This document shows positions 24,129 through 27,410 of a DNA stretch of 64,000 nucleotides, piece after piece. Positions within the stretch are counted from its first letter, which is position 1. Each line of letters begins with the position of its first letter. The notes beneath the pieces were generated by a model. The model saw nothing but the letters and a program-made list of their open reading frames with translations. It was not told where the DNA came from and ran no database searches. Source of the stretch: Escherichia coli (lineage in GTDB: Bacteria > Pseudomonadota > Gammaproteobacteria > Enterobacterales > Enterobacteriaceae); NCBI RefSeq assembly GCF_003334305.1, contig NZ_QOWS01000026.1. One strand, written 5' to 3'. The translations under genes and the position numbers were made by a program.

Positions 24129-24617
24129 AATAATAAGAGTGTTGCAGTTGTTTCATTTATTACTCAAAAATGGTTTAGTTATCGCCCAGGATGAGTTATG
24201 GATGCTATGAATATATTATATTCAGGGATGTTTATTTTTTGATTGGATCTTTATTTGCATAATCTGAATGGTGTACCCGAAAAATGTCAGCATCCTAACA
24301 GCACCCGGATTTAAGGTGAAATTAATCATCCATCACAGACCGGTCAGTACTGCCACCAACCGGTCTTTACTTGTTCATCGTTATAATTTTGTTGGTAACA
24401 GTTCGGGAAACAAGGAATTCCTTCCGGAACCCCCCGGTATCATCCGATAGCATTGACGTCAATCATCAGCGCGACGATGAGTTTTTTTAATCGCATCATA
24501 GGGTGGCGACGTTCAGCACGATTACGGGTCATAGCAAAACTCCTGGGCAGGCGACCACTATGCCGCTTTCACAGGAGTTCTGAATGCTAGTGCTTTCTGT
24601 ATGGCATAACCATGCCT

Positions 24618-24908
24618 CTAACGGTTAAGTGCTTGCAGCACATGTTGCGGATCATTGGCAATCGCTCGCAGCAAAGCCTTTGCAGGCCCGGTCGGTGAAC
24701 GTCGCCCCTGCTCCCAGTTACGCAACGTGTCTACGCTTACAGAAATAAGATCGGCAAATTTAGATTGTGACAACCCTGAAGCGCGGCGTATTTCTTTGAT
24801 TTTCATAGCATCAACTTCAAAAGTCCGCGAAGGCTGTCGCGTTCCTTCAATAATTTCATTCATCTGGGCCATGCTGTGAGTCAACCGCTCAAAAAGTGCC
24901 TTATCCAT
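24618..24908 (-). CDS. XRE-family HTH antitoxin-like protein (HigA-type)
   Basis: 96 aa; HTH with hallmark LRNWEQGRRSPTGPAKALLR segment typical of HigA-2-type antidotes; start codon directly abuts stop of upstream toxin gene. Confidence 0.8.
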   Translation of the reverse strand: MDKALFERLTHSMAQMNEIIEGTRQPSRTFEVDAMKIKEIRRASGLSQSKFADLISVSVDTLRNWEQGRRSPTGPAKALLRAIANDPQHVLQALNR

Positions 24909-25220
24909 TTACCACCTCGTATTTAACAACCGGAGCATTGCTTTTTCCTGGGGAGACAGATCATCTTTAATACCCTTACGATAAATAAGCAGTAATCTGA
25001 TCTCATAATGTTTAACCTGATGAAAGTAAATAACCCTGACACCAGCACGTTTCCCCTTTCCTCCTGAAACCCATCGAACCTTTCTTAACCCACCAGTTTC
25101 AGGTATTACCTCACCATAGTCAGGATTCAAGGCCAGGAAAAACTGAAAACGACTGAATTCATCGTCGGTCAGCAGTTTTTGAACATCTTCAGTAAAAATT
25201 TCCGTTTCGATGAAGAGCAT
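24909..25220 (-). CDS. RelE/ParE-superfamily toxin-like protein (HigB-type)
   Basis: 103 aa; conserved GGLRKVRW..GKGKRAGVRVIYF core typical of HigB-2/Gp49-like toxins; located upstream of its HTH partner (toxin-first order). Confidence 0.75.
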   Translation of the reverse strand: MLFIETEIFTEDVQKLLTDDEFSRFQFFLALNPDYGEVIPETGGLRKVRWVSGGKGKRAGVRVIYFHQVKHYEIRLLLIYRKGIKDDLSPQEKAMLRLLNTRW

Positions 25221-25342
25221 AATTATACGCCATTGGCTTAGAGTAACAATCCTTTTTGTACGTCATTGACGTACCCTTGAAACCACTAGCTTACTGATAG
25301 TGCTCCAGCAAAACCACGTCTCTGCCGGGTTTGTCTTTAGAT

Positions 25343-25361
25343 TTGCGAGGCGCTTTCCAGA
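25343..25361 (-). promoter_or_regulatory. Recurrent 19-bp motif copy C, about 125 bp upstream of the HigB-like gene
   Basis: Plus strand TTGCGAGGCGCTTTCCAGA; lies between the divergent toxin and esterase genes. Confidence 0.35.
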
Positions 25362-25373
25362 TTTTTCACGCCC

Positions 25374-26357
25374 GTGAATTTCCCTGTATCCATCCAGCAA
25401 AAACGGGTGTATAAGACTGTACATTCATACAGCAAAATAAGTTCTACTATGGCACTGGAAAAAGGAATTGCAGAGTTAGTCGAAAAGTTTATCGCTGCGG
25501 GTCGCCCCTCATCGCGTCAACAAAGTATTGCGCAGCGCAGGGAGGGCTATATCGCCAGCGCTGTCCTTGCGGGTGAGACAGAAACGCGGGTAGATATTCA
25601 GACTATCGAACTTGAAGGGATGACCTTACGAATAGTGTCGCCGCTGAATGCCCCGACATTACTCCCGACGATAATTTATTACTACGGTGGCTGTTTTGTT
25701 AGCGGCGGGTTCGCAACTCACGACAACCAGCTGCGCCAGTTAGCCTATTACGGGCAATGTCGGGTTATTGCCGTCCAGTATCGGCTGGCACCGGAACATA
25801 CTTTCCCCGCCGCCCATGATGATGCGCAACGAGGTGCAGAAATAGTCTGGCAACACGCCGAACGACTCGGCGTTGATAAACAACGTATAACTCTTGCCGG
25901 TGACAGTGCGGGCGGACATCTGGCGCTGGTAACTGCTTTGCGATTAAAGCGTGCTGGCGAGTGGCAACCGGCACAACTCATCTTAATTTATCCTATGCTT
26001 GATGCGACTGCGCATTTCGAAAGCTACATACGCAATGGTCACGATTACATCATCACACGCGACACTTTACTGAGCGGCTTTGAGATGTATCTGCCAGGCA
26101 TTGAACGCAGGCATCCTGAAGCCAGCCCTCTTTGGCGCGATGATTTCAATGGCTTGCCACCTGTACATATCATTACCGCTGAATACGACCCACTTTGCGA
26201 TGAAGGTGAAGCGTTGTATCACCGCATGACAGGGCAAGGAGTGCAATGCACCTGCCAACGCTACCTTGGCGTTATCCACGGATTTTTTCAGTTAGGTGGT
26301 ATCAGCGAGGCCGCGCGATCGGCACTACGGGATGTTGCCTGGAGAGCGGGAAGGTAA
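25374..26357 (+). CDS. Alpha/beta-hydrolase esterase/lipase (Aes / hormone-sensitive-lipase family)
   Basis: YGGCFVSGG oxyanion-hole region, GDSAGG nucleophile elbow, downstream Asp and His (DPLCDEGE, GVIHGF); ORF track start is GTG at 25374, alternative ATG at 25449 (MALEKG..., 302 aa). Confidence 0.8.
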   Translation: MNFPVSIQQKRVYKTVHSYSKISSTMALEKGIAELVEKFIAAGRPSSRQQSIAQRREGYIASAVLAGETETRVDIQTIELEGMTLRIVSPLNAPTLLPTIIYYYGGCFVSGGFATHDNQLRQLAYYGQCRVIAVQYRLAPEHTFPAAHDDAQRGAEIVWQHAERLGVDKQRITLAGDSAGGHLALVTALRLKRAGEWQPAQLILIYPMLDATAHFESYIRNGHDYIITRDTLLSGFEMYLPGIERRHPEASPLWRDDFNGLPPVHIITAEYDPLCDEGEALYHRMTGQGVQCTCQRYLGVIHGFFQLGGISEAARSALRDVAWRAGR

Positions 26358-26375
26358 CTTCGGACCTGGGCCCTG

Positions 26376-26408
26376 AAAAGGTTTTCAGATTGAAAACCTT
26401 TTCAGTCA
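26376..26408. terminator. Perfect 14-bp inverted repeat between convergent esterase and yiiD
   Basis: CTGAAAAGGTTTTC agatt GAAAACCTTTTCAG; no T-run, so terminator function uncertain. Confidence 0.4.
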
Positions 26409-26420
26409 AGTAAAACGCCC

Positions 26421-27410
26421 CTACTCTTCTTCGTTCCCGCCCTCTTCATACGGGCCAAATGGCTTCGCGGGCAGAACGATATACGTGCCTTCAAACACTG
26501 CACCCGGCGTCTCGTCGCCAAAGATTTCAACTTGCATCTGCACCCGTGCTTTTCGTCCGCGCGCCAGACGGTCGAGATCGCCGCTTAAGGCACCAAGGTC
26601 GGCTATCGCATGAGGTTTACCGCTAATCGGCTTGCTGTAGCGGATATGCGCATCCGCCAGAATAATCGTTCCGCCGAGATGGCGTTCGCGCAGCATCAGC
26701 CAGATAAGCCCCCAACCGGTGAGCGTCGCCAGCGAGAATAAACTCCCGGCAAACAGCGTATGGTGCGGATTCTGATTGCCGGTTTCCGGCATGGTGGTGA
26801 TAAATTTTTGCCCGGTATATTGTTGAATGCGCACGCCCATTTTTTCGCTTAATGGAATGTGTTCATACCACGCCTGTTGCAGCTGGGCGCACCAGTCACC
26901 GCGATGCAGAATATCATCCAGAGTGGCAACGGGTTTAATCATCAAAAAATGGCGAATCGGCGTGGTAGTTGGGGTGGTGATCTCCCCCTGATTAATGAAT
27001 CCCAGCTTGGCGAAAAACTCCACCGCGTCTTCACGGGCGCTACAGGTCACGCGCTTAACGCCTTCCTGACGCGCCACCGACTCCAGGGTCATCGCCATCA
27101 GCGTTCCTAACCCTTTGTCCTGCACGTCGGGATGAACGGCCATAAAGCGAATGGACGCTTCATTGTCGGCATTAATATACAATCGGCCTACCGCCACCAG
27201 ATTACCCTGCTCGTCGACGACCATCTGGTGATGCGCCATCGCATCCCACGCGTCGCGTTCCGAACCTTTTGGTTGATGCAGGGGCTTACGCAACATTTCC
27301 CAGCGAAACTGATAGTAACGCTCTAATTCTTCTTCTGTTTGTGGAACCCGAAGGTGATACATAGCGATACTCTCTCTTGTTTCCCGTGACAACCCTGGAA
27401 GCTGGCTCAT
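26421..27410 (-). CDS. yiiD: GNAT acetyltransferase / thioesterase fusion protein YiiD (FabY)
   Basis: 329 aa [40 protein letters not shown]. Confidence 0.88.

Follow-up and report, generated by a model that had tools for sequence, protein, structure and literature searches.

The module described here, which occupies positions 24,618 to 25,220 on the minus strand of a 64,000-nucleotide stretch of Escherichia coli DNA (contig NZ_QOWS01000026.1, hereafter the window), is very probably a canonical chromosomal type II toxin-antitoxin operon of the HigB2/HigA2 type. This reading combines the homology of the two proteins, the fold of the toxin and its conserved catalytic residues with signs of purifying selection, the conserved operators, the synteny and the frequency of the module in the population. 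By sequence comparison, the module is the E. coli orthologue of sehCD of Salmonella enterica (STM4032.2N-STM4033; SL3979-SL3980 in strain SL1344). Its orthologue has a name and a homologue, HigB2/HigA2 of Vibrio cholerae, has been characterised structurally, which makes it an already known module, real but ordinary.

An intact toxin-first operon

The two genes and the signal that couples them are the following.

24909..25220, minus strand: toxin gene, 103 aa, HigB-2/SehC-type toxin of the RelE superfamily; open reading frame MLFIETEIF...GGLRKVRWVSGGKGKRAGVRVIYF...NTRW
24618..24908, minus strand: antitoxin gene, 96 aa, NadS/HigA-2/SehD-type; open reading frame MDKALFERL...LRNWEQGRRSPTGPAKALLR...ALNR
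24912..24918, minus strand: Shine-Dalgarno sequence of the antitoxin gene, GAGGTGG, within the last toxin codons

Both reading frames are uninterrupted and the module is intact. On the minus strand the junction reads CG AGG TGG TAA ATG GAT AAG, the toxin TAA (24911-24909) abutting the antitoxin ATG (24908-24906); the antitoxin gene is preceded by a recognisable and strong Shine-Dalgarno sequence, and the toxin gene has no recognisable one. An initial annotation, made from the letters of this DNA, had given the coordinates, the lengths, a set of protein motifs, the uninterrupted frames, the abutting stop and start codons and the embedded Shine-Dalgarno sequence, and all of these are as it claimed.

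The same layout is found outside E. coli. Salmonella and Enterobacter have the same junction, AGGTGGTA[A/G]ATGGA, and proteins of the same 103 and 96 aa; the junction of a Pantoea copy is an overlapping TAATG version, and the toxin-first order in a tightly coupled operon, which is that of HigB2/HigA2, is kept in three genera. The gene order, the coupled translation and the intact state of the module, as they had been read from the sequence, all hold up; the junction is conserved across genera and there are no indels. Among 80 homologues on viral contigs, 59 are followed by an open reading frame encoding a helix-turn-helix (HTH) protein, whose start lies between -20 and +55 nt from the toxin stop and in most cases within about 11 nt of it. 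Because both proteins have strong homologues and the junction and the lengths recur in other genera, the module is confirmed as a genuine, intact two-gene toxin-antitoxin pair, far beyond what chance would produce.

The toxin is a homologue of HigB2

The homology of the toxin is made unambiguous by its direct comparison with the sequences and structures of the solved HigB-2 proteins. A phmmer search of the PDB aligned its residues 2-99, ungapped, with the V. cholerae HigB-2 chains (5ja9, 5ja8, 9tv9, 8a0x and 5mje) at E values from 1.5e-19 to 1.5e-18, the figures for the best chains being 1.5e-19 for 9tv9_C and 8.8e-19 for 5ja9_C, and the identity to HigB2 is about 40% over 98 ungapped residues. 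HigB2 is a demonstrated ribosome-dependent RNase, whose activity is cut 170- to 3000-fold by the replacement with alanine of Arg51, Arg64, Tyr82 or Lys84 (Hadzi et al., PMC5416850). The ungapped alignment places R49, R62, Y80 and K82 of the E. coli toxin at these four positions. All four are invariant in an alignment of five sequences (E. coli, Salmonella, Enterobacter, Pantoea and Vibrio), and among 70 diverse relatives R49 is invariant and R62, Y80 and K82 are each at least 90% conserved. The core of strand beta3, VIYF, has the aliphatic-aliphatic-aromatic-aromatic pattern of the IIYY repeat, which in HigB2 permits strand sliding.

The AlphaFold2 (AF2) model of the toxin, built on the alignment of the 70 relatives, has a predicted local distance difference test (pLDDT) value of 92.3 and the topology beta-alpha-alpha-beta-beta-beta-alpha. 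Compared by Foldseek with free HigB2, it gives template modelling (TM) scores of 0.84-0.88 and root-mean-square deviations of 1.3-2.0 Å; PfiT and RelE come next, well behind, and the TM score for HigB of E. coli K-12 (5ifg) is only 0.42. The toxin thus joins homology to HigB2 with a RelE-like fold that includes the C-terminal helix. The assignment to HigB-2/HigA-2 made by the initial annotation is upheld by the homology to PDB chains, the conserved active site, these TM scores and the HTH match of the antitoxin described below.

Profile libraries gave a different picture. The only Pfam match of the toxin is RelE PF06296, a marginal one (i-Evalue 0.0062, 17.2 bits, residues 43-101), for which precomputed matches are present on some homologues of the toxin. 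PF05973 (Gp49-like) and PF05015 (HigB-type) are absent from its Pfam matches even at E values up to 10, and the label 'Gp49-like' given to it earlier is therefore not supported. The NCBIfam and PADLOC profile searches of the toxin returned no match. These empty searches are uninformative for this protein and are not counter-evidence. The check by profile hidden Markov models (HMMs) and structure prediction that had been proposed thus succeeded for the antitoxin, with its NadS and HTH_3 matches, and for the toxin fold, which is HigB2-like in the AF2 model, but the profiles proved poor detectors of the toxin. To take the lack of a significant HMM hit as a refutation, as had also been suggested, would have led to the wrongful rejection of a real module. 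The wider family is large, with 3888 clusters at 50% identity (E value of 1e-3 or better).

The antitoxin and its predicted toxin-binding segment

The antitoxin matches the NCBIfam model NadS (NF041265) over residues 5-89 with 60.7 bits and an E value of 1.2e-16, barely above the cut-off of 60, and its gene is named nadS in RefSeq. No paper that defines the name NadS was found in our literature search, and the nadS gene of K-12 mentioned in a PIRT-Seq paper is a different gene from the one considered here. In Pfam, the protein matches HTH_3 (E value of 3.1e-9), which corresponds to an XRE helix-turn-helix, and MqsA_antitoxin (2.6e-4). Its matches in the PDB include the HigA-2 chains, with an E value of 1.8e-8 that improves to 8.5e-11 with a four-sequence profile, and Atu1735 (1.3e-10). 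Its C-terminal XRE-HTH domain is therefore homologous to that of HigA2. The bases of the operator are read in HigA2 by R68, E71, N72 and R77 (PMC11006873), and N64 and R69 of the E. coli antitoxin align with N72 and R77. PADLOC models matched by the antitoxin are limited to generic HTH, RmrA and CapH.

The N-terminal segment, of about 30 residues, is strongly conserved among the enterobacterial proteins, and HMMER produced no alignment of these residues to HigA2. A fused AF2 model was computed for the E. coli toxin, a linker and the antitoxin as a single chain, the input alignment consisting of 28 natural pairs joined by a flexible linker. In this model antitoxin residues 3-21 form a helix and residues 28-31 a strand, with pLDDT values of 92-95, and the linker is disordered. 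That the predicted helix and strand would be the element that HigA2 forms on HigB2 is a conclusion for which the model is supportive rather than conclusive.

Two putative operator boxes and two promoter candidates

The region upstream of the toxin gene contains two related palindromes.

25258..25274, no strand: O1, perfect 17-bp palindrome GTACGTCA-T-TGACGTAC, found by an inverted-repeat search; centre 46 bp upstream of the toxin ATG
25226..25240, no strand: O2, near-palindrome TAAGCCAATGGCGTA (read on the minus strand); centre 13 bp upstream of the toxin ATG and 33 bp from that of O1

O1 and O2 are variants of one 15-mer, located at 25259-25273 in O1 and at 25226-25240 in O2, with the consensus TACGCCA-N-TGGCGTA (TACGYCA-N-TGRCGTA across both boxes). 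O1 has the TACG-N7-CGTA frame of the V. cholerae higBA2 operator, which was footprinted as TGTACGC-N5-GCGTACA (PMC11006873), and GTACG-N7-CGTAC occurs once in the window, against 0.01 expected. In an alignment of the E. coli upstream region with those of Salmonella, Enterobacter and a Pantoea plasmid, the core of O1 is invariant in the four genera and the O2 block is conserved with the central spacer base of the Pantoea copy as its sole difference, so that both stand out amid otherwise divergent sequence. The spacing between the two centres is 33-34 bp in the chromosomal copies and 46 bp in Pantoea.

A scan that tolerated two or fewer substitutions was made of 49 distinct upstream regions, taken from homologous loci on viral contigs, and 42 of them contained the 15-bp motif at most 60 nt from the start codon. 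The motif had no match in 288,568 nt of flanking sequence; within the window, O1 and O2 are its only two matches. Because of this difference between upstream regions and background, the promoter-proximal box is, as judged from the sequences compared, family-wide, and the second, upstream box marks a subset to which the enterobacterial chromosomal clade belongs.

Two promoter-like sites were recognised by their sigma-70 consensus hexamers, and a pair of hairpins lies on the other side of the module.

25240..25266, minus strand: promoter-like site A, ATGACG-15-TACTCT; its -35 hexamer is inside the right half of O1 (E. coli hexamers read by eye)
25222..25249, minus strand: promoter-like site B, TTGTTA-16-TATAAT, 10 of 12 consensus positions in the scan; overlaps O2
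24536..24616, minus strand: two hairpins 3' of the antitoxin stop, the second followed by UUUU; possible operon terminator

Site A reads TTGACG-16-TACTAT or TAAACT in Salmonella, Enterobacter and Pantoea, with 9 of 12 matches, and is weakened in E. coli. Site B is the best sigma-70 match in E. coli and has the counterpart TTGTTA-16-TATGAT in Enterobacter; its -10 hexamer ends one base before the toxin ATG, and a start 6-9 nt downstream of it would lie inside the toxin open reading frame. A single sigma-70 promoter consistent across the genera was sought and had to be given up, neither of the two candidates being fully satisfactory in E. coli.

Downstream of the antitoxin, the predicted RNA fold of 24525-24620 (minus strand) has an energy of -31.5 kcal/mol with a z score of -2.3, and an inverted repeat is located there too; a consensus terminator scan did not call these hairpins. 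A 30-codon open reading frame on the minus strand (24450-24543) was rejected as a gene, being frameshifted in O157 and having for its apparent Shine-Dalgarno sequence one arm of a downstream hairpin. Both hairpins and this frame belong to a 207-bp segment, 24411-24617, that is common to O157 and absent from K-12. An Rfam scan of 23000-26500 returned nothing at the module; the sub-threshold matches ES036 and naRNA4 correspond to REP-like palindromic elements at 23207-23289, between fdhE and yiiF.

Relatives in other genera and selection

In Salmonella and in Enterobacter hormaechei the module occupies the corresponding slot next to fdhE, accompanied by the esterase gene in Salmonella but not in E. 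hormaechei. Between genera the amino-acid identity is about 70% for the toxin (71% with Salmonella) and 86% for the antitoxin, without indels, and the ratios of nonsynonymous to synonymous differences per site (pN/pS), about 0.21 for the toxin and 0.12 for the antitoxin, point clearly to purifying selection on the module. Its synonymous sites are saturated, with pS values of 0.78-0.89 (0.78 against Salmonella) versus 0.46 in the flanking fdhE, and because of this excess a strictly vertical descent of the module is not certain.

Relatives of the module are common on prophage-like contigs, with 238 matches in IMG/VR and the PHROGs 5869 and 2104, both annotated as 'unknown function'. A curated phage collection added little, giving only nine toxin matches, several of which are on bacterial contigs. 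The Pantoea copy, 63% identical, is carried by the 87-kb plasmid pPSP-26e of Pantoea sp. PSNIH1 beside genes for phage tail, baseplate and maturation control, and this plasmid looks like a phage-plasmid.

A variable chromosomal slot in E. coli

The gene order of the window, fdoI-fdhE-yiiF-yiiE-[antitoxin, toxin]-alpha/beta hydrolase-fabY-dtd-yihY, is that of the E. coli chromosome, and the window is 100% identical to strain 503025. At a threshold of at least 95% identity, the module is present in single copy in 2637 of 5426 complete E. coli genomes (about 49%), 2635 of these copies being chromosomal. No paralogue of the antitoxin was found by a distant blastn search in E. coli genomes that lack the module.

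The interval between yiiE and fabY (24041-26420) is variable among strains. It holds the toxin-antitoxin pair and the esterase here; K-12, which lacks the module, has about 455 bp of DNA that is unrelated and includes a pseudogene fragment; and O157:H7 has in place of the module two unrelated hypothetical genes (304 and 297 aa) but keeps about 25 nt similar to the antitoxin gene's 3' end. NCBIfam and PADLOC searches of the two O157:H7 genes returned no match.

The carriers themselves are not uniform. The insertion of one G in the G-run encoding the GGKGKR loop frameshifts the toxin in 132 of the 2637 carriers (5%), which form a sublineage. Among the frameshifted genomes examined, one (L008, frameshifted toxin at 1792-2104) retains the antitoxin, in intact form; another (L010, 2499-2796) combines the frameshifted toxin with an IS1 in place of the antitoxin, and in one genome IS1 is inserted in the toxin gene. 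The species is thus polymorphic for the module, about half of the strains lacking it, 5% of the carriers being frameshifted and the rest intact. In the RefSeq/PGAP records examined the intact toxin is called 'hypothetical protein', and the frameshifted or IS-split copies are called 'type II toxin-antitoxin system RelE/ParE family toxin'.

Several observations concern the neighbouring genes and the sequence records. The divergent alpha/beta hydrolase gene (25449-26357, plus strand, annotated with 302 aa) matches the LipP1 and hormone-sensitive-lipase models below their cut-offs and is the counterpart of Salmonella STM4032, located between sehCD and sehAB. On the other side, yiiF and yiiE (23334-23576 and 23795-24013, minus strand) encode small CopG/ribbon-helix-helix proteins, have no NCBIfam match and no adjacent toxin gene, and are absent from the corresponding position in Salmonella and Enterobacter. 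The PLSDB entries CP022659.1, NZ_CP077309.1 and NZ_OL790696.1 are filed as plasmids, yet with their core chromosomal genes (fdoI, fdhE, fabY, dtd) or a length of 4.8 Mb they are probably pieces of chromosome. The module is also present in the assembly NZ_CM135829.1, labelled 'DH5alpha'; since K-12 does not have it, this points to a wrong strain label.

Proposed mechanism and alternative explanations

In the mechanism we propose, the free toxin, a small and basic protein of RelE fold, would enter the ribosomal A site and cleave the mRNA under translation, thereby provoking growth arrest. The antitoxin, a dimeric XRE-HTH protein translated from the strong Shine-Dalgarno sequence at the end of the toxin gene, would inactivate the toxin by the folding of its N-terminal 30 residues or so as a helix and a strand on the toxin surface, and would repress the operon by binding the two 15-bp palindromes, which overlap the promoter region and lie about three helical turns apart. 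The combination of a strong Shine-Dalgarno sequence for the antitoxin, a weak initiation of the toxin and this autorepression would keep the antitoxin in excess despite the toxin-first order.

Several points weigh against this interpretation. We infer the RNase activity, the neutralisation and the repression in E. coli, and the toxin-antitoxin interface is read from pLDDT values and secondary structure only. The toxin is barely visible to profile libraries, two of the four base contacts of HigA2 are changed in the antitoxin (D60 and R63 replacing R68 and E71), and the strongest sigma-70 match of the upstream region ends one base before the toxin ATG. Two promoter palindromes, a tenfold repression by SehD and the binding of SehD to the promoter were reported in Salmonella only by De la Cruz et al. 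2013 (PMC3868539), a paper marked retracted that we used as a lead only. The same paper describes deletions of sehC, sehD and sehCD without growth or virulence phenotype, and the viability of the sehD deletion without growth defect may mean that the toxin is weak at native expression. Finally, SehA, the toxin of the neighbouring Salmonella module and likewise of RelE fold, was reported in 2026 to inhibit RNase III and to have no nuclease activity (PMC12817084); in view of this precedent the fold alone is no proof of nuclease activity.

Part of these points would be accommodated by an attenuated or domesticated module, a chromosomal relic in which the toxin is barely made or weak and the NadS/SehD-type protein acts mainly as a transcription factor. 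The imbalance of the two Shine-Dalgarno sequences, the TTGTTA-16-TATAAT site whose transcripts would miss the toxin start, the weakening in E. coli of the promoter seen in the other genera, the toxin frameshift in 132 of 2637 carriers with the antitoxin kept intact in the one such genome examined that retains it (L008), and the viable, phenotype-free sehD deletion of the retracted study all go in this direction. We nevertheless hold it unlikely: about 95% of the E. coli carriers are without the toxin frameshift, the toxin has a pN/pS of about 0.21 across genera with no indels and with its four catalytic residues kept, SehC was reported to be toxic on expression and was detected by proteomics in Salmonella (PMC4366850), and the promoter reading comes from a consensus scan. 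A more pronounced form, in which the toxin would be effectively silent in E. coli, most transcripts would be antitoxin-only and the NadS-type protein would be an independent regulator that might also have targets outside the operon, seems to us doubtful to a similar degree; if true, it would make the module a natural intermediate in the domestication of toxin-antitoxin systems.

The canonical operon is also to be preferred to two readings that change the function of the toxin. The SehA precedent raises the case of a RelE-fold toxin that is not an mRNA endonuclease and arrests growth through another target, as SehA reportedly does on RNase III. This is most improbable, because the E. coli toxin keeps the full HigB2 active site and SehA belongs to a different subfamily: its identity was reported to be 11.6% to SehC and 40% to E. 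coli K-12 HigB (PMC3868539, retracted), it was described as devoid of the canonical active-site residues, with the critical ones on an extra C-terminal helix (PMC12817084), and the TM score of our model is 0.88 to HigB2 versus 0.42 to K-12 HigB. Even less credit can be given to an abortive-infection element in a variable anti-phage defence hotspot, a role to which the initial annotation had pointed along with stabilisation and persistence. The differing content of the yiiE-fabY interval in K-12, O157 and the window strain and the frequency of the family on viral contigs (the IMG/VR matches, the two PHROGs and the Pantoea plasmid with its tail and baseplate genes) would be compatible with it. 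On the other side, the toxin matches none of the PADLOC-DB v2 families and the antitoxin only generic HTH models, the O157 replacement genes have no PADLOC match, the neighbours are an esterase and core genes without any defence or mobility gene, and the presence of the module in the same slot in Salmonella and Enterobacter indicates that it has long resided there and is not a newly arrived mobile insertion. The three suggested roles are generic, and phage defence is unsupported.

Significance

For discovery, the module carries little weight, the family, structure, mechanism and operator being established in V. cholerae. Its practical value is one of annotation: with no NCBIfam model to recognise it and a marginal Pfam match, the intact E. 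coli toxin, of which about 2,500 complete genomes have a copy, goes under 'hypothetical protein' in the RefSeq records consulted. Studies on the regulation and decay of toxin-antitoxin systems may gain from the family-wide operator consensus TACGCCA-N-TGGCGTA and from the presence/absence and frameshift polymorphism of the module across E. coli.

Comparison with known systems

The most distant of the systems compared is E. coli RelE/RelB, with which the toxin shares the RelE fold (Foldseek probability 1.0, TM score about 0.55); the active site of RelE resembles that of HigB2 in being made of Arg, Lys and Tyr without a His-Glu pair (PMC5416850). RelE/RelB differs by its reversed gene order, by a RelB that is a ribbon-helix-helix protein with a C-terminal binding segment, and by a sequence identity of about 10-12%. 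HigB/HigA of K-12 (ygjN-ygjM), HigBA of Proteus Rts1 and SehAB of Salmonella are, like the module, toxin-first type II systems with RelE-superfamily toxins and HTH antitoxins, but they belong to another subfamily and their antitoxins bind the toxins differently. In keeping with this, the toxin described here has no HigB-type Pfam match and, as given above, a low Foldseek score against 5ifg. SehAB was considered as the orthologue and set aside: the toxin has no match to the residues published for SehA (Y53, H88 and others), SehB measures about 143 aa or more, and sehAB lies across the esterase gene.

The structurally characterised homologue is HigB2/HigA2 of V. cholerae (VCA0468-0469; PDB 5JA8, 5JA9, 5JAA and 8A0X). 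The two systems are alike in their toxin-first order, in the toxin fold, in the four catalytic residues and the beta3 pattern, in an antitoxin with an N-terminal helix-plus-strand binder (predicted in the E. coli protein) and a C-terminal XRE HTH, and in the operator form TACG-N7-CGTA. The E. coli toxin is 7 residues shorter, the N-terminal segment of its antitoxin 7-8 residues shorter, and two operator boxes are found in E. coli instead of the single reported site. The E. coli module is in a core-genome slot, whereas V. cholerae higBA2 is located in the superintegron.

The closest relative is sehCD. In S. Typhimurium, SehCD was reported to be a bona fide pair, SehC lowering cultivability and SehD restoring it, and SehC was detected by proteomics (Lobato-Marquez et al. 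2015, PMC4366850); the mass of 12,326 Da calculated for the toxin of the Salmonella locus is the published mass of SehC. De la Cruz et al. (PMC3868539, retracted) gave a 72% identity of SehC to 'E. coli HigB'. The E. coli locus differs by the lack of the second module, sehAB, which Salmonella has beyond the esterase gene, by the presence of yiiF and yiiE between fdhE and the module, and by the hexamer inside O1, which is ATGACG instead of the TTGACG of Salmonella, with a spacer 1 nt shorter. Both loci share the slot next to fdhE, the divergent esterase gene, the lengths of 103 and 96 aa, the stop/start junction and both operator boxes, and this common slot, together with the high identity to SehC and SehD, places the E. 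coli module in the sehCD orthologous group.

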